A stretch of 64,000 nt of DNA, taken from Gammaproteobacteria bacterium. Lineage in GTDB: Bacteria > Pseudomonadota > Gammaproteobacteria > Ga0077536. Location of the stretch: positions 1,728,001 to 1,792,000 of the forward strand of contig CAXXLL010000003.1 in assembly GCA_963662545.2 (NCBI GenBank). The letters are read 5' to 3'. How positions within the stretch are numbered: the first letter of the stretch is position 1; every line of letters starts with the position of its first letter. Positions 56,982 to 64,000 of the stretch are shown one piece after another. The notes under the pieces were generated by a model. The model saw nothing but the letters and a program-made list of their open reading frames with translations. It was not told the DNA's origin and ran no database searches. A program made the translations under genes and the position numbers.

Positions 56982-57797
56982 TCAAGTCTGGCAACGGCTG
57001 CAGAAAAAGCTCGAACGCTGTCCAATCACACGCATCTTCAACGGTTTTCGGCACCTTACACAGGGATCACCCTCGCGCCCGTAGACCCTGAGCTTGTGCC
57101 GGAAGTATCCCGGCCTGCCATCGTCGCGTACGAAATCCCGCAAGCTCGTACCCCCCGCCTCGATCGACTCGCGGAGTACGGTCGTGATTTTCGACACCAG
57201 CGATTCGTATCGTTCGAGTCCGATGCGCCCGGCCGCGCGCACCGGGTGGATACCGGCGCGAAACAGCGCTTCGCTCGCGTAGATATTGCCGACGCCCACG
57301 ACCACGCGGGCGTCCATGATGTAATTCTTGATCGCGACGGTGCGCCCCCGCGCGCGATGGTACAAGTAGGCGCCGGTAAAAGTTGCATCGAAGGGTTCGG
57401 GCCCGAGATCGCGCAACAGCTCATGCGCCATGGGGTCACCTTTGGTCCACAGCATCAGGCCGAAGCGGCGCGGATCGCGCAGGCGTAGACAACGATCGCC
57501 GCGAAAGATGATCTCGACGTGATCGTGCGGCTGGCGCGGTATGCTAGCGTCTACGACGCGCAGACTGCCGGACATGCCGAGGTGGGTAATCAGTGTCCCG
57601 CGTGGAAAGTCGAACAGCAGGTACTTGGCGCGGCGCGTGACGGCGGACAGACGCGCGCCGGTCAGTATCGCAGAAAGATTACGGCTGACCGGGCGGCGTA
57701 GCCGCCGGTCGTGGACCTTGACCGCCGTGACGTCGCGACCACACAGCAAGGGTTCAATGCCGCGCCGCGTCGTTTCCACTTCGGGCAGTTCAGGCAT
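56982..57797 (-). CDS. mutM: Formamidopyrimidine-DNA glycosylase
   Basis: MPELPEVE, HLGMSG, GVGNIYASE, C-terminal zinc finger. Confidence 0.97.
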   Translation of the reverse strand: MPELPEVETTRRGIEPLLCGRDVTAVKVHDRRLRRPVSRNLSAILTGARLSAVTRRAKYLLFDFPRGTLITHLGMSGSLRVVDASIPRQPHDHVEIIFRGDRCLRLRDPRRFGLMLWTKGDPMAHELLRDLGPEPFDATFTGAYLYHRARGRTVAIKNYIMDARVVVGVGNIYASEALFRAGIHPVRAAGRIGLERYESLVSKITTVLRESIEAGGTSLRDFVRDDGRPGYFRHKLRVYGREGDPCVRCRKPLKMRVIGQRSSFFCSRCQT

Positions 57798-57967
57798 TGC
57801 GCCGGCGCCACCAACACATTACGCCGTTAAGGCTTAGTACCAGCGGCAGTCCGATACAGAAAAACAGGAACATCACCAGACGCTCCCACATGGCGAGATC
57901 CAGTTCGGCATCGAGAACTTTTGGCACGACGATGTCGATCAGCGCATCGTCGGCAGCAAGCCATTCG
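57790..57967 (-). pseudogene. 3' remnant of a GldG-like ABC-transporter auxiliary membrane protein
   Basis: EWLAADDALIDIVVPKVLDAELDL..IGLPLVLSLNGVMCWWRRRNA*; stop overlaps the mutM start. Confidence 0.55.
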
Positions 57968-58106
57968 AGCGCGCGTCGCCCGGCGGATGCTTTTGACGTG
58001 TTGCTCTGGTGTCTCGTGACGCGTGCTTCTCTTACTCATCCTGCTCTCCTCTCGAGCCTCGATGAGTCAGAATCACTCCATTATCTAAACTCCGCAACTT
58101 GTCTCA
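57968..58106 (-). mobile_element. IS3-family left-end remnant
   Basis: TG terminus (TGAGACAAGTTGCGGAGTTTAGATAATGGAG), SD, then MSKRSTRHETPEQHVKSIRRATR (OrfA-like), truncated. Confidence 0.6.
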
Positions 58107-58479
58107 TGAATGCTGACGGGGAACAGCACGATCCAGGCGGCGCGGGCTGTCGGCAAGGGGGTCGACGACAAACTCGAGGGACGGGAGCGCGTAAAGGAAC
58201 CCAAGCAACTCATGGACGAATGGCGGCAGATCATTGCCGAGAAATCGATCATCACGGAATACTCCGAAATCGACATCTGAATCGCCGTTGCAGGGGTCAT
58301 TTCGCTCGCAGCAGGCGGGATCCTACAGCGAACCTGAGCCGCCCTCCTGCGTCAACCGCAATTCAAAGCCGCTTACGTCATTCAGCCGACGTTATTCTTC
58401 CGCAGTCTAGCAACCGGCGCGGGTGGCGCCGAATGAACGGAGCCGGCTCGGAATTAAGCTAAGAAAAAAAGGTGTCAGG

Positions 58480-59819
58480 CTGAGGGATCCCCACAAATTC
58501 GACTAGCAAAATTCAAGTTGCACAATGGCGCGTGCCTGTAGATCCCGGAGCGCCTGTAATAAAGTTGAGCGCTGGATTTGAAGTTGCTTGGCAATGAGGC
58601 GAGCACCAACGAATACCACGGATAGGACGGGCTTACGTCTTTCGGTATTGGCCTGTAAACCTTTCACTAAACCTGTTTGGTAACCGACCAAGCCGACCAA
58701 CCATTGGGCCAGTGTGGCCAATGCGCACAGCAAGAGTAAGTTCGCCACTCTCTCGGGATCACGTCCCATGTTTTCTCTAAGTGCAAAGCCGTAACGGGGC
58801 GACTTCATGTCGCGGAAGCTCTCTTCAATCTGCATGCGGCGACGATACACGGCAACTACCCGATGCGCACTACGAAGGTTGTCCGGCAGATTGCTGGCCA
58901 ATAACCACGGCTCACGCGCCGCTGCCGACGGTTTCTCGGTATTGCGAGCCCGCGCCGGTTTGCCGTAAGCCGTATAGCAGACACGCCCGCGTTTCTTACC
59001 TTTGTAAACGAATAAATGGGTGTCCAGCGGATTACTTTTCGTGATCAAAAAACGACCCAGTGACTTCGGACGAGCATTGGCTTGGCCGTAGAGCACTTTG
59101 TTCGAATGCCATGCCGCCTCATCCATACCTCGCACGAGGTGACGATGACGGATGCGACCCACGTAATACCATCCCATTGAGGCCACAAGACTCAACCAGG
59201 GCGTCCGAAATCCTGCATCACTGACCAAGATCGGACAACAGCCCGCAGGCAGAATGGCCTTCAGTCGCTTCAGAAAGCGTTTCTCCGCTTTGACACTCGC
59301 GTAATGGTGTTCGACTTCTTCATACACGGGGATGGCTCGACCACCGACCGCTAAGGCCGCCCGCAATACATAGAGCTCTTGACGTTGATCCAGATTAGAC
59401 CAATCCACCAACACCACCGGATGCGCACAGTCCGATACCAATAACCGAGCTATCCATTGATACCACTGCAAACGCTCACCACCGAGCTGACGATTACCCA
59501 GCAAGCGATCGACGCGCTTAATCGCGTGTTTCTCGCTCGTGCCACTGTCTATGCTCCGACCGATATGCGTCAGCCACAAACGTCGGCCCCGAAGTAAACC
59601 GCCGACCGCCGCCCAAACCGAGAGTCGACGACCCAAATGCACACCGTATAGCGCTTCGCTGCTCATTTCATGTAACAATTTCAATACCTGCATGGCTCAC
59701 CTCGTCGTTCACAGATTGTCTTGCAACAACTGAGATCAACTCGAGCCATGCAGGTTCCACGAACCCACAAATCAATCTATCGCTTTGTATTTCGTTGGGG
59801 TTTTATGGGGATTCCTCAG
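58480..59819 (-). mobile_element. IS4-family (IS10-like) element, copy 1 (1340 bp)
   Basis: IRs CTGAGGGATCCCCACAAA / CTGAGGAATCCCCATAAA; 9-bp duplication GGTGTCAGG (58471-58479, 59820-59828). Confidence 0.93.
58503..59693 (-). CDS. IS4-family transposase
   Basis: LVDWS, SDAGF, EPWLL, YRRRMQIEESFRDMK (YREK). Confidence 0.95.
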   Translation of the reverse strand: MQVLKLLHEMSSEALYGVHLGRRLSVWAAVGGLLRGRRLWLTHIGRSIDSGTSEKHAIKRVDRLLGNRQLGGERLQWYQWIARLLVSDCAHPVVLVDWSNLDQRQELYVLRAALAVGGRAIPVYEEVEHHYASVKAEKRFLKRLKAILPAGCCPILVSDAGFRTPWLSLVASMGWYYVGRIRHRHLVRGMDEAAWHSNKVLYGQANARPKSLGRFLITKSNPLDTHLFVYKGKKRGRVCYTAYGKPARARNTEKPSAAAREPWLLASNLPDNLRSAHRVVAVYRRRMQIEESFRDMKSPRYGFALRENMGRDPERVANLLLLCALATLAQWLVGLVGYQTGLVKGLQANTERRKPVLSVVFVGARLIAKQLQIQRSTLLQALRDLQARAIVQLEFC

Positions 59820-60005
59820 GGTGTCAGGTTTATTTACTTGCTGAAACTCAGCAAGAAAAGGTATCGCTTAAATAAACCTGACACCTTTTCGTGGAGCCGG
59901 CTCGGAATTTGGTGGCGTGGAGCCTTGAGCCTTCCCTAGGTGTACGCACGAACCCGAGTTGATCAACAATACACCGACCGATTTAGACAGTCAGAGGAAA
60001 TAGAC

Positions 60006-60323
60006 ATGAAGAAATCGTTGAATCGTCGCGAGTTTGGCCATCTTTGCGCCGGCCTTGCAGCAACGGCTCTCGCCGTACCTGTCTCCTGGGCCGAGGATTT
60101 GCCGCAATTGGATCCGGCCGGACCGCAGGCCTCTGCACTGGGATACATCGCTGACGCATCAGAGGTTGACACCAGTAAGCACGCAAACTTCATTGCGGGC
60201 AGCACCTGTGCGAACTGCATACAGTACCAGGGCGGCGACGAGTGGGGCAAGTGCACCATTTTTCCCGGGAATCTCGTCAATGCCAAAGGCTGGTGCACCG
60301 TGTGGGTCAAAAAGCCCGCTTGA
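60006..60323 (+). CDS. High-potential iron-sulfur protein (HiPIP)
   Basis: Tat leader NRREF; ALGY..CANC..C.IFPG..V.AKGWC..W. Confidence 0.92.
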   Translation: MKKSLNRREFGHLCAGLAATALAVPVSWAEDLPQLDPAGPQASALGYIADASEVDTSKHANFIAGSTCANCIQYQGGDEWGKCTIFPGNLVNAKGWCTVWVKKPA

Positions 60324-60344
60324 GCCGCGCCTGATCGAAGCATC

Positions 60345-60375
60345 GAAGACCGGCCTCACGCCGGTCTTCTTTTTT
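60345..60375 (+). terminator. Rho-independent terminator after HiPIP
   Basis: GAAGACCGGC-CTCAC-GCCGGTCTTC-TTTTTT. Confidence 0.85.
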
Positions 60376-60555
60376 GGACCTAATGCATCGCGATGCCGCC
60401 GGCGTTGCCGGATCCCACTGTGATAAAGTCTCGACCCCGTCGACAATAACAACGAGGAGTCCACCAGAGTAGCGCCGTCTCAATTGACCGCACAGCCCCG
60501 CCCCATCCAAACCTAGATATCTCCTATACAGGAGGCACTTAAGAGCCCCGGGCTC

Positions 60556-60610
60556 GTTCAACAATAGGATAAAGTCGCGGCTGCGCACGACTTATCCTTA
60601 TTCGTTAAGT
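60556..60610. other. attC-like integron recombination site
   Basis: GTTCAAC (RYYYAAC)-AATAG-GATAAAGTCG..CGACTTATC-CTTATTC-GTTAAGT (GTTRRRY), 55 bp bulged palindrome. Confidence 0.65.
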
Positions 60611-60970
60611 GCCCGATGACTCAGATCTTTCAATCACGTGCGGCATTCGCCATGCCACCAGACCGGCGATCAGGTAACCCACGTTTAGGACGCCAATCAC
60701 CCACATCCAGCCGGGCACCCCAAGAAGGAAATAACCAATCGGAAAGAAGGAAGCAAAGAACAGCACTATTAGCGTAATGCCGTGCCCATGTATCGAGGCG
60801 ATTACGACTATGATTGCTAGCATCGCCAAGAGCATCGCTACGAAAAAAGCCACGCCAGACAATGGAAGCGGCGGAGTGGGTGTCCACATTGCGACGTTCC
60901 AGCACGCACACGCTCCGACCCCAGATACTACGCCAGTGAATTTTCCAACAAGTTGTATTGTTTCCCTCAT
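60605..60970 (-). CDS. Four-TM hypothetical protein (gene-cassette-like)
   Basis: 121 aa, hydrophobic, lower GC; stop codon lies inside ACTTAAC; GTTAGGT 17-23 nt upstream of ATG. Confidence 0.7.
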   Translation of the reverse strand: MRETIQLVGKFTGVVSGVGACACWNVAMWTPTPPLPLSGVAFFVAMLLAMLAIIVVIASIHGHGITLIVLFFASFFPIGYFLLGVPGWMWVIGVLNVGYLIAGLVAWRMPHVIERSESSGT

Positions 60971-61233
60971 AGCGCTAATCCGGGGCACCTAACGCTAGGA
61001 TAACCTGCGTGTTACGAGTATAGAAGATATAGACGCCCCCTCTTGACCCGTGGGGTCTATTGGGGTCAAGTCTTCACTTTATACAGGTTCAAAGCGCAAC
61101 CACCGTGCTTTCGATGATCGCCTCTTATCCCGAGCTTCCTCGAAGTTATTTTCGATCCAGTTATTTCGCCGCACCGGCATCGTTAATAAATTGATGTCCG
61201 TATCCAGCGAGGTGTCAAAAAAAAGGTGTCAGG

Positions 61234-62573
61234 CTGAGGAATCCCCATAAAACTCCAACGAAATACAAAGCGATAGATTGATTTGTGGGTTCGTGGAATC
61301 TGCATGGCTCGAGTTGATCTCAGTTGTTGCAAGACAATCTGTGAACGACGAGGTGAGCCATGCAGGTATTGAAATTGTTACATGAAATGAGCAGCGAAGC
61401 GCTATACGGTGTGCATTTGGGTCGTCGACTCTCGGTTTGGGCGGCGGTCGGCGGTTTACTTCGGGGCCGACGTTTGTGGCTGACGCATATCGGTCGGAGC
61501 ATAGACAGTGGCACGAGCGAGAAACACGCGATTAAGCGCGTCGATCGCTTGCTGGGTAATCGTCAGCTCGGTGGTGAGCGTTTGCAGTGGTATCAATGGA
61601 TAGCTCGGTTATTGGTATCGGACTGTGCGCATCCGGTGGTGTTGGTGGATTGGTCTAATCTGGATCAACGTCAAGAGCTCTATGTATTGCGGGCGGCCTT
61701 AGCGGTCGGTGGTCGAGCCATCCCCGTGTATGAAGAAGTCGAACACCATTACGCGAGTGTCAAAGCGGAGAAACGCTTTCTGAAGCGACTGAAGGCCATT
61801 CTGCCTGCGGGCTGTTGTCCGATCTTGGTCAGTGATGCAGGATTTCGGACGCCCTGGTTGAGTCTTGTGGCCTCAATGGGATGGTATTACGTGGGTCGCA
61901 TCCGTCATCGTCACCTCGTGCGAGGTATGGATGAGGCGGCATGGCATTCGAACAAAGTGCTCTACGGCCAAGCCAATGCTCGTCCGAAGTCACTGGGTCG
62001 TTTTTTGATCACGAAAAGTAATCCGCTGGACACCCATTTATTCGTTTACAAAGGTAAGAAACGCGGGCGTGTCTGCTATACGGCTTACGGCAAACCGGCG
62101 CGGGCTCGCAATACCGAGAAACCGTCGGCAGCGGCGCGTGAGCCGTGGTTATTGGCCAGCAATCTGCCGGACAACCTTCGTAGTGCGCATCGGGTAGTTG
62201 CCGTGTATCGTCGCCGCATGCAGATTGAAGAGAGCTTCCGCGACATGAAGTCGCCCCGTTACGGCTTTGCACTTAGAGAAAACATGGGACGTGATCCCGA
62301 GAGAGTGGCGAACTTACTCTTGCTGTGCGCATTGGCCACACTGGCCCAATGGTTGGTCGGCTTGGTCGGTTACCAAACAGGTTTAGTGAAAGGTTTACAG
62401 GCCAATACCGAAAGACGTAAGCCCGTCCTATCCGTGGTATTCGTTGGTGCTCGCCTCATTGCCAAGCAACTTCAAATCCAGCGCTCAACTTTATTACAGG
62501 CGCTCCGGGATCTACAGGCACGCGCCATTGTGCAACTTGAATTTTGCTAGTCGAATTTGTGGGGATCCCTCAA
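61234..62573 (+). mobile_element. IS4-family (IS10-like) element, copy 2 (1340 bp)
   Basis: Near-identical inverted copy of 58480-59819; duplication GGTGTCAGG (61225-61233, 62574-62582); terminal base A instead of G. Confidence 0.93.
61360..62550 (+). CDS. IS4-family transposase
   Basis: Protein identical to 58503-59693. Confidence 0.95.
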   Translation: MQVLKLLHEMSSEALYGVHLGRRLSVWAAVGGLLRGRRLWLTHIGRSIDSGTSEKHAIKRVDRLLGNRQLGGERLQWYQWIARLLVSDCAHPVVLVDWSNLDQRQELYVLRAALAVGGRAIPVYEEVEHHYASVKAEKRFLKRLKAILPAGCCPILVSDAGFRTPWLSLVASMGWYYVGRIRHRHLVRGMDEAAWHSNKVLYGQANARPKSLGRFLITKSNPLDTHLFVYKGKKRGRVCYTAYGKPARARNTEKPSAAAREPWLLASNLPDNLRSAHRVVAVYRRRMQIEESFRDMKSPRYGFALRENMGRDPERVANLLLLCALATLAQWLVGLVGYQTGLVKGLQANTERRKPVLSVVFVGARLIAKQLQIQRSTLLQALRDLQARAIVQLEFC

Positions 62574-62717
62574 GGTGTCAGGTTTATTTACTTGGAAGTT
62601 GGAAAAAATAAACCTGACACCTTTTCTTGACACCTAAAGGGTACTGACCCCTTATTCGGGCGTCGGCTTGTAGAGTTGTAGATAGTGAAGACTTGACCCC
62701 TTAAGACCCCTTAACAT

Positions 62718-64000
62718 TTAGGCGTTGCGGTCAACTTTTGAGAAGTATTCAACACTAGCAGACACCACCCGCGGTGCGAGCAAAACCGTCGCGATGAGAT
62801 TGGGAATGACCATCAGCGCAAACGCGGTGTCCACCATATTGACCGTGGTCGCGGGACTCCAGACCGCCGCCAAGGGGATCAATACGAGATAGAAATACAC
62901 AAAGTGGCCGCCGCGCTCGTGTCCGAAAAGATAACGCGCGCACTTTATGCTGTAGTAGGCGTAGGTAATCATCGTCGTTACCGCGAATAAGGTGAAGATG
63001 ACGCCGAGCACGGCGGCGCCGAAACCGGGCATGCTGCTTTCGAATGCCTGCGCGGTCATGACGACACCCGCCTCGTGGGGTGCCACGCCGCTCGTAAGGA
63101 TTACGAGAGCCGTCAGCGTGCAGACCACGTGCGTATCGATGAAGGGTCCGAGCATTGCCACCAGCCCTTCGCGAACGGGTTCATTCGTGCGCGCTGCGCC
63201 GTGCGCCATCGCCTCCGTCCCAACGCCGGCTTCATTAGAGAAGACCGCCCGTTTGACCCCGGTGACGAGGATCTCTTTGACGGTGAGGCCGGCTGCGCCG
63301 CCAAGGGCCGAGTCGGCGTCGAAAGCGCCCGCGACGATCGCGGTGAGCACGGCGGGAACCTGCGCTGCATTGTCGAGAATGACCACGACCGCCCCGAGTA
63401 GATAGCCGATGCACATAGCCGGCACCAGCAGGCCCGCGACGCGACCGACCCGGGCTGCGCCGCCGATCACGACCGTGCCGACGATGAGCATGGCGGCGAG
63501 CCCGGTCGCAAGCTGTGTGATCGACCATTGCTCGGCCAGCAGATTGGCGAGCTGATTCGATTGAAAGACGCCGAGGCACCCAACCATACCGCAGGCGGCG
63601 AATGCTACGGCAAGCGGCCGGTAGCGCCGGCCGAGCCCGACTTCGATGTAGTACATCGGGCCGCCCTGCATGACGCCCTGGGCATCGGGCTTGCGGTACA
63701 TACACGACAGGGTGCAGGTGAAAAACTTGGTCGCCATGCCGAGCGCGCCCGCGACCCACATCCAGAACACGGCACCGGAACCGCCTACGGTAATCGCGAT
63801 GGCGACACCGGCGATGTTGCCCATGCCGATGGTGCCTGACAGGGCCGCGCTCAGCGCCCGGAAATGACTGATCTCGCCGGGGTCGCGGGCCCGGTCGTAG
63901 CGCCCGGACAGGATGGCGAACGCATGACCCATGTGCCGTAAAGGCGCAAGGCGGCTGATCACTGTGAAATAAAGGCCGGCCGAGCCTAGCATCACGACCA
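62718..64000 (-). CDS. Alanine/glycine:cation symporter (5' end outside window)
   Basis: GTIGMGNIAGVA, GGPMYY, FSNEAGVG, FIDTHVVC. Confidence 0.93.
   Translation of the reverse strand, partial: VVMLGSAGLYFTVISRLAPLRHMGHAFAILSGRYDRARDPGEISHFRALSAALSGTIGMGNIAGVAIAITVGGSGAVFWMWVAGALGMATKFFTCTLSCMYRKPDAQGVMQGGPMYYIEVGLGRRYRPLAVAFAACGMVGCLGVFQSNQLANLLAEQWSITQLATGLAAMLIVGTVVIGGAARVGRVAGLLVPAMCIGYLLGAVVVILDNAAQVPAVLTAIVAGAFDADSALGGAAGLTVKEILVTGVKRAVFSNEAGVGTEAMAHGAARTNEPVREGLVAMLGPFIDTHVVCTLTALVILTSGVAPHEAGVVMTAQAFESSMPGFGAAVLGVIFTLFAVTTMITYAYYSIKCARYLFGHERGGHFVYFYLVLIPLAAVWSPATTVNMVDTAFALMVIPNLIATVLLAPRVVSASVEYFSKVDRNA

Follow-up and report, generated by a model that had tools for sequence, protein, structure and literature searches.

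Fixed-point insertion into REP or REPIN repeats is already established for insertion sequences (IS) of the IS3, IS110, IS481 and IS4 (IS4Sa subgroup) types. The closest described case is ISRm22 from Sinorhizobium meliloti, a REP-targeting member of the IS4 family, subgroup IS4Sa (PMC1525189, PMC2266710). Table 2 of PMC1525189 places all ten of its copies in REPs, and the hybrid flanks of some copies are attributed to IS-IS recombination. Like the element described here, ISRm22 is an IS4-family DDE element which breaks the REP at one fixed point and is bounded by short direct repeats. However, it belongs to another subgroup, its repeats are 6 bp long, it enters at the palindrome axis and it is found exclusively in REPs. 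The element here is of the IS10 subgroup, makes 9-bp repeats and enters one arm close to its base; only six of its ten copies are in the main repeat family, or eight if the GGGGACATTC-head family is included.

IS10/Tn10 has the size, the CT ends and the 9-bp duplication in common with the element (PMC2266710, Table 1). Its hot spots are defined by a symmetric motif together with flanking context; Table 1 of PMC2577343 gives GNNGCTNAGCNNC, and PMC2758499 places one IS10 site within intrinsically bent DNA. We found no report of REP or REPIN targets for IS10 in the literature searched. For IS231A of Bacillus thuringiensis, another IS4-family element, the target core is led by G and ended by C, i.e., GGGNNNNNCCC (PMC2577343, Table 1). 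As here, its hot spot lies inside the inverted repeat of another mobile element, the ends of Tn4430; the subgroup, the 10-12-bp repeats, the Gram-positive host and the Tn3-family terminal repeat used as target are different. A role of bent flanking DNA for IS231A was reportedly described by Hallet et al. in 1994. Elements of the IS110 family (ISPpu9, ISPpu10, ISPa11), the IS3 family (ISPsy8) and IS481 are also inserted in REPs or REPINs, but their transposases and chemistry are unrelated. The IS110 family relies on a guide (bridge/seek) RNA (PMC11208160, PMC11187229), which is not expected for a DDE element of the IS10 type.

Two insertions at the identical base of two palindromes

The window, i.e., the whole stretch of 64,000 nucleotides that was analysed, comes from the genome of Gammaproteobacteria bacterium (Ga0077536), referred to as G000; G001 is a sister species and G002 a congener. 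The window contains two copies of a 1340-bp element. Copy A (58480-59819) is on the minus strand, with its transposase ORF at 58503-59693 (-), and copy B (61234-62573) is on the plus strand, with an ORF of 396 aa at 61360-62550 (+). The target duplication GGTGTCAGG is present at 58471-58479 and again at 59820-59828 for copy A, and at 61225-61233 and again at 62574-62582 for copy B. An A-tract precedes it (A7 at copy A, A8 at copy B), TTTATTTACTTG follows it, and the right-hand flank runs on into the inverted arm AAATAAACCTGACACCTTTT (59870-59889 and 62606-62625, respectively). What the initial annotation had claimed, a separate 9-bp duplication for each copy at the same base of two palindromes, is directly seen.

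Both palindromes are REPIN doublets, P1 and P2, and all their features are on the plus strand. In P1, the outer segment of the left arm (58464-58479) consists of the A-tract and left duplication. The remainder (59820-59892) consists of the right duplication, the left arm to about 59840, a spacer and the right arm. P1 with the IS inside is bracketed by a 17-bp direct repeat, GGAGCCGGCTCGGAATT (58439-58455 and 59893-59909), whose only two occurrences in G000 are these. P2 starts with an outer stem, AGGTGTCAA, followed by the A-tract and left duplication (61210-61233), and continues on the other side of the IS with the right duplication, the right arm and the outer stem TTGACACCT (62574-62635). 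It is enclosed by a larger palindromic repeat with the core GGGGTCAAGTCTTCAC (arms at 61052-61085 and 62677-62710), of which there are 18 arms genome-wide, most of them facing an inverted partner at a distance of 40-200 nt. A HiPIP gene (60006-60323, +; Pfam HIPIP, 82.9 bits) lies between the inverted IS copies and is mentioned for context only.

The transposase ORFs of A and B are on opposite strands while P1 and P2 point in the same direction, as originally described. The two copies differ at exactly three positions (IS positions 21, 66 and 1340; window positions 61254, 61299 and 62573 in B), where at least three non-coding differences had been claimed; the ORF, IS positions 127-1317, is unaffected. 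Copy A has the commonest sequence variant, identical in four other copies. Copy B ends in A instead of G (...CCCTCAA), a change in common with the copy at G000:C3:167049. This terminal base was absent from the initial annotation.

The opposite orientation relative to the arm, the three differences, the shared G-to-A change of B and the private features that pair the two flanks of each copy (A lies within the 17-bp repeat, B within the outer stem AGGTGTCAA/TTGACACCT) indicate that A and B are two independent insertions, in opposite orientations, at the identical base of two REPIN doublets. The two copies could also be the ends of a Tn10-like composite transposon, which would have moved as one unit and left a single duplication at its outer ends. 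The same 9-mer is found at all four flanks, and the duplications do not discriminate; in G002, DNA matching 59893-59996, just to the right of A, directly adjoins the sequence on the left of A. As the private features pair the flanks within A and within B, two simple insertions are favoured. The 19-mer arm has four matches within the window, compared with 0.00 expected from 100 shuffles. Genome-wide, with the IS removed, it has 27 matches at up to two mismatches, against none for the reversed pattern, and these counts rule out chance as an explanation.

An IS10-like element of the IS4 family had been proposed from the start, and the placement in the IS10 subgroup is confirmed. The transposase scores 58.4 bits with Pfam DDE_Tnp_1 (cut-off 23) and 313.5 bits with NCBIfam transpos_IS4_2 (cut-off 152). 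The YREK signature of region C1, Y-(2)-R-(3)-E-(6)-K as defined in PMC2266710, is found in ...AVYRRRMQIEESFRDMK... as Y283, R286, E290 and K297, the last three being invariant in an alignment of 18 sequences. Table 1 of PMC2266710 gives 1200-1350 bp, 5'-CT ends and 9-bp direct repeats for the subgroup; the element has 1340 bp, CTGAGG... at both ends and 9-bp repeats at all ten full copies, one with a single mismatch. In a tblastn search of plasmids, the identity to the IS10A/ISVsa5 family is 38-39% over 91-93% of the query, and among other named IS4 elements it is 35% to ISEc29 and 32% to ISSfl1. In the tree, IS10A falls outside the clade, on a long branch.

The target repeat and its occupancy

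The target palindrome is a REP/REPIN-type repeat. The doublets fold into hairpins of -25 to -31 kcal/mol, and an unoccupied, near-identical paralogue of P1 (G000:C3:1809672-1809753) into one of -31.3 kcal/mol. Of 15 other genomes that belong to the same family, nine contain the arm. A Y1 (RAYT-like) ORF at G000:C2:1485504-1486004 (Pfam Y1_Tnp, 35.3 bits, cut-off 23) is flanked by two arms upstream (1485376 and 1485424, +) and one downstream (1486215, -). This ORF may be decayed, as it is only 166 aa long and has PIH in place of the HxH of the other four RAYT-like genes. At the orthologous P1 site of G002, a single locus, the flanks are joined with a single 17-mer and neither doublet nor IS, and the absence of the doublet is evidence of REPIN mobility. 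The view that the IS had entered another selfish repeat holds on these grounds.

G000 has ten full IS copies with eight variable positions in total. In six of them the duplication is GGTG[T/A]CAGG, with an A-tract on one side and TTTATTT on the other, and the IS orientation relative to the arm is split three to three. One truncated copy of 123 bp lies at the same base of the repeat. In the IS-less genome, 32 arms were found at up to three mismatches, compared with none for the reversed control; 12 of them are solo arms and the others form ten doublets (54-72 bp). The occupancy of the palindrome family, a check suggested by the initial annotation, is 6/10 for doublets and 7/32 for arms. By our own arithmetic, a random insertion would strike one of the 27 closest arm positions with p ~5e-6. 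The copy at G000:C3:2692281, in a solo arm, and an interrupted copy at C3:2698197 have the duplication and the right flank in common and are therefore not independent events.

The other four full copies have the duplications GGACATTCT, GGACATCCC, GGACGCACT and CGGTGTACC. With slashes setting off the duplication, three of the targets read aaaagg/GGACATTCT/tctttt, aaaagg/GGACATCCC and aaaagg/GGACGCACT/tatttt, and the fourth, read on the opposite strand, caatgg/GGTACACCG/tgtttg. The GGACATTCT and GGACATCCC targets lie in the REP head AAAGGGGACATTC, which has 33 copies at up to one mismatch (control 1) and flanks an intact RAYT at G000:C3:2366322. Insertions are present in 7/32 arms of the main family versus 2/33 heads of this second family, and a third REP family, AAAAGGTGACGGAGGGATTA (32 arms, no T-tract after the core), has no IS insertion in G000. 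The ten sites are thus divided into six in the main family, two in the GGGGACATTC-head family, one at AAAAGG/GGACGCACT and one inside an ORF. With this distribution the element does not belong to the 'Type 1' REP-associated IS as defined by Tobes and Pareja (2006).

The target motif across species and alternative explanations

The sister species contains a 93%-identical IS at different sites with the same motif, and none of the eight IS loci in G001 is inside the target repeat of G000. Across many Gammaproteobacteria, 42 sites give the logo AAA-GG/GGTCAGAGY/YY-TTT. The first G of the core is present in 41/42 and the second in 38/42, A at -5 to -3 in 27-31/42 and T at +3 to +6 after the core in 20-26/42. 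An inverted partner is present at only 13/42 sites. What the sites have in common is a 9-bp core led by GG, A-rich upstream and T-rich downstream, and this combination is borne by REP heads. IS10 itself, with the same target specificity, was rejected, as none of the ten duplications in G000 contains GCTNAGC (IS10-type, NGCTNAGCN). Among relatives, only three of 29 sites (L066, L097 and L095) resemble IS10 targets; the core is GGTCAGAGY in the clade, or GG-led variants in the G000 lineage, versus GCTNAGC in IS10.

We suggest that the targeting is very probably a sequence preference rather than a strict recognition of the repeat. The proposal of a repeat-targeting lineage is accordingly divided: the family is heavily colonised, but recognition of the repeat as such is not supported, and a shared motif is found instead. 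The diverse targets that the initial annotation had named as counter-evidence do exist in part, i.e., the other four of the ten duplications in G000, the loci of the sister species and the many sites lacking a partner. The motif as written does not fully explain the top hit rate of the main family, as GGTGTCAGG matches the clade-wide core at only about half of its positions and the A/T tracts of this family are 2 bp nearer to the core than at other sites. Only insertions that have survived reveal the preference, and the pattern therefore also reflects selection against insertions into genes.

A more specific reading, which we consider doubtful, is that a whole clade of IS10-like elements, spread through Gammaproteobacteria, has become specialised for landing in REP heads. 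The motif would then be a stringent, roughly palindromic sequence of about 19 bp, AAAGG/GGTCAGAGY/YYTTT, coinciding with the conserved 'head' of one class of RAYT-associated REPs. Examples of such heads are AAAGGGGTCAG..., AAAAGGTGTCAGG... and AAAAGGGGACA...; the second and third flank Y1/RAYT-like genes in G000. If this were true, specificity would drift with the REP repertoire of the host in a long-term parasite-on-parasite relationship, and provide natural variants in the way that a Tn10-type transposase recognises its target.

Instead of a linear motif, the transposase or a host factor that it uses could recognise the repeat folded as a hairpin or a cruciform, or else a protein bound to the REP, and the targeting of REPINs would then be structure-specific. 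This would agree with the occupied doublets, which are always hit close to the stem base, and with the inverted partners (at least 14/19 matches within 150 nt) seen at 7/10 sites in G000 and 6/29 sites elsewhere, compared with 0.4% of shuffled flanks. The relatives L039, L069 and L084 also lie between two arms, with inverted rather than direct 9-mers flanking them. However, 29/42 sites are without an inverted partner, including all three scored G001 sites and the solo arm at C3:2692281, and the depth of insertion in the stem differs between two REP families. Further, in four of the five genomes checked the frequency of AGGGGTCAGAGT does not exceed that of its reversed control, yet IS relatives occupy it. 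Recognition of a structure is therefore improbable.

It is very unlikely that the IS was copied together with its flanks, by gene conversion or segmental duplication, or multiplied by repeat-driven misassembly, in place of repeated transposition. The same 9-mer is present at all REPIN-borne copies, so that a matching duplication is no proof that two flanks belong together; two of the copies are related by segmental duplication, and in G001 the flanks of two copies do not match, as IS-IS recombination would produce. On the other side, the full copies are found in both orientations relative to the arm, and the truncated copy raises the count of the second orientation to four. Neither conversion nor palindrome inversion is able to yield both, and the two are rejected. 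Beyond the doublet the flanks are unique to each locus, and the A-tract side offers only about 13-16 bp of homology for conversion. The support for the junctions comes from k-mer contigs only: the ends of contigs X15 and X16, which stem from two different studies, coincide exactly with the IS boundaries 61233 and 62574, and contig X5 from a third study (58126-58601) spans the left junction of copy A.

Random insertion, with survivors left only in neutral extragenic repeats by purifying selection, is equally hard to credit: REPs are extragenic by nature and 8/10 sites have no ATG-started ORF of at least 90 aa crossing them, but selection, even if it favours intergenic DNA, cannot put seven insertions at one base of a 19-bp arm, the near-identical copies (0-7 differences) leave little time for filtering, and one copy is inside a 186-aa ORF.

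Proposed mechanism and its meaning

With a sequence preference as the favoured reading, we suggest that a recently active IS10-subgroup element of the IS4 family would transpose by ordinary DDE cut-and-paste with 9-bp staggered target cuts, as its family membership implies. The transposase would choose its target by a combined sequence and shape motif, reading the GG-led 9-bp core while the A-rich 5' and T-rich 3' tracts would help through DNA bending, as reported for IS10 and IS231A. Several REP/REPIN heads in G000 would fit this motif, and AAAA/GGTGTCAGG/TTTATTT would fit best and be the hot spot. The copies in the window would then be two independent hits at the same base of different REPIN doublets, in opposite orientations.

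What is new is an IS10-subgroup example of the known REP-targeting behaviour. The evidence is unusually clean, with near-identical copies, both orientations, more than half of the doublets occupied and an empty orthologous repeat site. The relatives, which occur in many marine and soil Gammaproteobacteria and have 35-93% transposase identity, share a target core other than that of IS10, and the clade offers natural variants for the study of how Tn10-type transposases read their targets. For the host, the hot spots put inverted IS pairs around ordinary genes, here the HiPIP gene, and the small REPIN population is open to erosion by an IS.

Two insertions in the window

The two IS10-subgroup elements (IS4 family) in the window, copy A (58480-59819) and copy B (61234-62573), are both 1340 bp long. 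Each encodes a 396-aa transposase, on the minus strand in A and on the plus strand in B. Both carry their own 9-bp duplication GGTGTCAGG, found at 58471-79 and 59820-28 for copy A and at 61225-33 and 62574-82 for copy B. An A7-8 tract lies 5' of the left 9-mer and TTTATTTACTTG lies 3' of the right one, followed after a spacer of 28 nt (A) or 16 nt (B) by the inverted arm AAATAAACCTGACACCTTTT. The palindromes at both sites point in the same direction, and the window contains four matches to the 19-mer arm (0.00 expected). The initial annotation had described two elements with a shared duplication, palindromes and opposite orientations, and the window sequence agrees with it; the sole point absent from that description is the last base of copy B, which is A and not G.

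Both copies begin with CTGAGG(G/A)ATCCCC... and end with its inverted counterpart. We rejected a reading of GGTGTCAGG as belonging to the terminal repeat of the element, since the repeat is direct rather than inverted and other copies have other 9-mers. The transposase matches Pfam DDE_Tnp_1 and the NCBIfam IS4 model and contains the YREK signature. It is 38-39% identical to the IS10A/ISVsa5 transposases, while its closest database proteins carry no IS name, and in the transposase tree IS10A lies outside the clade on a long branch. The size, CT ends and 9-bp repeats tabulated for the IS10 subgroup accommodate the element (PMC2266710).

Exactly three IS positions (21, 66 and 1340) distinguish copies A and B, none of them within the ORF. 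They represent separate events, since their orientation relative to the arm is opposite, and neither conversion nor inversion of the palindrome can produce this. Copy A is the commonest variant. Copy B has two private changes and a sub-lineage mark, the terminal G-to-A at one end (...CCCTCAA, window 62573), which it has in common with the copy at C3:167049 of the source genome. These two copies lie at different loci, which suggests at least one transposition of an element with the altered tip.

The flanks of copy A are tied together by a 17-bp repeat and those of copy B by an outer stem AGGTGTCAA/TTGACACCT. Contig-level evidence comes from Logan k-mer contigs of public runs. Contigs from two studies end exactly at 61233 and 62574, and a contig from a third study runs across the junction on the left of A (58126-58601); it has 14 differences, and those listed all fall outside the IS. 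Among these k-mer contigs, none covers a whole IS with both flanks and no joint skipping exactly one IS is listed. Two joints with short sides of 28-30 (61204 to 62675 in contigs X15 and X16; 58295 to 59939 in X16) may reflect other strains or paralogous copies of the enclosing repeat.

The two copies (58480-62573 in all) are inverted and enclose 1.4 kb with a HiPIP gene at 60006-60323 and an ORF of 127 aa that has no Pfam match. Two separate insertions have thereby produced a Tn10-like composite architecture, which could possibly move as a unit. Copy B and the doublet that holds it, P2, in turn lie between the arms, GGGGTCAAGTCTTCAC, of a second palindromic repeat (61052-61085 and 62677-62710). 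There are 18 such arms in the genome, paired at about 40 or about 190-200 nt. The nesting at P2 thus has three layers: an IS within a REPIN within a larger palindrome.

The target repeat

After in silico removal of the IS, the genome contains 27 arms at up to two mismatches and 32 at up to three, with none in the reversed control. The arms form 10 doublets, six of them occupied, and 12 solo arms; hairpin folding is predicted for the unoccupied doublets. A 166-aa ORF at C2:1485504-1486004 matches Pfam Y1_Tnp (IS200-like family), with two arms on its upstream side and an inverted one downstream. A Y1 gene bracketed by inverted repeat arms is the layout that defines RAYT/REP systems. Among 15 other genomes from this taxonomic family, nine also carry the GGTGTCAGG arm (control 0). 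Further, P1, the doublet that holds copy A, is missing at the orthologous site of a congener (L115, G002:C1:1-1597), where the two flanks adjoin directly and there is one 17-mer GGA(A/G)CCGGCTCGGAATT in place of two. For P2 with copy B no empty orthologous site was found, as the sister species and the congener gave only paralogous or 30-nt matches. From the Y1 gene flanked by arms, the arms in other genomes, the hairpins and the absence of P1 in the congener, we conclude that the target is a REP/REPIN-type repeat.

In the window a perfect 17-bp direct repeat (58439-58455 and 59893-59909) brackets P1, an 88-bp insert when the IS is excluded. A duplication as long as 17 bp is not expected from Y1/RAYT-type mobility. 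It was rejected as a general trait of the repeat family, since direct repeats of more than 6 bp flank only 1/10 doublets.

The genome has seven Y1_Tnp matches. Each of four other full-length genes (C3:2366322, C2:805572, C2:1232658 and C3:129518) has its own flanking repeat: AAAAGGGGACATTC..., AAAAGGTGACGGAGGGATTA, GTCAACTCCGGCACCC or a classic GCGGGCTCCTAC REP. Several REP/RAYT systems thus coexist in one genome. These four genes read HFH, HIH or HLH, while the gene at C2:1485504-1486004 reads PIH. Judged by its short length and by PIH in place of HxH, the Y1 gene flanked by GGTGTCAGG arms looks decayed, and the repeat family may no longer have an enzyme to mobilise it.

The palindromes do not correspond to any RNA family catalogued in Rfam, where a scan of 57000-64000 at E values up to 1 found no hit. 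The doublets, whose loops are longer than 8, were not flagged by a consensus terminator scan with a loop limit of 8. In a literal search of papers both motif 16-mers were absent, and the 10-mers occurred in 220 papers, with primer or eukaryote contexts in the 15 listed.

Target choice in the source genome

The assembly (5.58 Mb, 3 contigs) contains, by blastn, 10 full copies of the IS, one copy split by another IS and two short fragments. The expansion is recent, since the full copies vary at just 8 positions and five of them share one sequence. In six of the 10 the duplication is GGTG[T/A]CAGG between an A-tract and TTTATTT, i.e., the identical base of the same arm, with three copies in one orientation relative to the arm and three in the other. 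A 123-bp remnant (C3:158985-159107) also adjoins this base. Three further copies lie at aaaagg/GGACATTCT/tctttt, aaaagg/GGACATCCC and aaaagg/GGACGCACT/tatttt. The tenth copy is inside a 186-aa ORF at CGGTGTACC, which reads caatgg/GGTACACCG/tgtttg on the other strand. The head (33 copies) of a RAYT-flanking repeat, AAAAGGGGACATTCATCTTTTC, is the target of the copies with GGACATTCT and GGACATCCC.

In the split copy (C3:2698197-2701239) the interruption, at IS position 320, is a 1697-bp IS with a gene for a 462-aa transposase. The split copy has the same duplication and right flank as the one at C3:2692281, 6 kb away, so it is a local segmental duplicate and no separate event. A 99-bp fragment (C2:1350199-1350297) belongs to a more diverged copy (95% identity). 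It has an unoccupied doublet on one side and the occupied doublet at C2:1350322 on the other, which points to an earlier insertion round at the same spot.

The initial annotation had proposed an IS4 lineage that targets repeats. The 6/10 occupied doublets agree with this, and so do the six copies at the identical arm base; however, the other four full copies have other duplications, a solo arm has been hit, and non-palindromic sites are hit in other species. In addition, a third REP family (head AAAAGGTGACGGAGGG) shares AAAAGGTGAC but lacks the T-tract, and 0/32 of its arms contain the IS. These observations favour recognition of sequence and flanks over "repeatness" as such. The best-supported explanation is a Tn10-type cut-and-paste element whose target choice depends on both sequence and flanks: the transpososome would pick a 9-bp core that starts with GG and lies between A-rich and T-rich flanks, and REP heads, which hold this motif in many copies, would become hot spots. 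By analogy with the bent-DNA effects for IS231A, the A/T tracts may have a part in targeting. The analogy extends to IS10, with bent-DNA effects reported in PMC2758499.

Sites in other species and known systems

The IS is found in 4/41 genomes searched, including the source. The sister species G001, with only two GGTGTCAGG arms, has it at eight loci (92-93% identity), none in such an arm. Six of these sites are aaaagg/GGTACGTGC/ttct, gaaagg/GGACGCGCC, aaaagg/GGACATCCC/tcttttt (a palindrome), aatgg/GGCATTTCT/attttt, GGGTGCAGC/tcttt and AGGCGCATC/tatttt; the remaining two copies have non-matching flanks.

Relatives were collected by a profile search of genome contigs (557 confirmed by tblastn), and the best 80 of the 557 were used. 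Of these, 51 had a full upstream flank and entered end delimitation, and ends were found in 46. In 29 of the 46 the duplications match at 8-9 of 9 positions; L073 and L077 represent a single orthologous insertion, and one genome contributes both L078 and L079. Fifteen of the 29 duplications are within two mismatches of GGTCAGAGT (~0.3% expected per site). The logo of 42 sites reads aaa-GG/G(41)G(38)T(25)C(24)A(22)G(25)A(31)S-Y/y-y-t-t-t, to which GGTGTCAGG is a mediocre match although it is the favourite target in the source genome. An inverted partner exists at 13/42 sites (source genome 7/10, other genomes 6/29, G001 0/3; null rate 0.4%). In the transposase tree GGTCAGAG-type sites occur in several subclades, and GGTCAGACG (L037) and GGACATCCC (L036) adjoin the lineage of the source genome and G001.

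Of five genomes checked, one has AGGGGTCAGAGT as a true repeat family (115 matches vs 16 in the control), and in the other four it is at control level. The Alteromonadaceae genome G042 has a clear RAYT flanked by AAAAGGGTCAGGTTGGATTG, not by the GGGGTCAGAG repeat; two same-strand copies of the latter lie near a partial Y1 match.

At L039, L069 and L084 (L046 partly) the relatives are flanked by inverted, not direct, 9-mers (GGTCAGAGT ... ACTCTGACC), and at the first three loci the IS lies between two palindrome arms with the spacer gone. This pattern is expected if both arms were hit and two IS copies then recombined. Loci L070, L081 and L072 are tandem: an IS copy, the 9-bp target sequence, then another copy of the same IS.

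Insertion at a fixed point of REPs is documented for ISRm22 (IS4 family), ISPsy8 (IS3) and the IS110 members ISPpu9, ISPpu10, ISPa11 and ISRm19 (PMC1525189), and for IS481 (PMC11708052). Palindromic target motifs of Tn10 and IS231A have been tabulated (PMC2577343). REP insertion is therefore already known for other ISs, and the IS10-subgroup case adds to that kind; our literature search found no IS10-subgroup element reported in REPs. The target motif shared across the clade is possibly already on record in ISfinder or in Figure 3 and the supplements of PMC2266710, which may list such specificity, and it is the least certain but also the most interesting extension of the finding.
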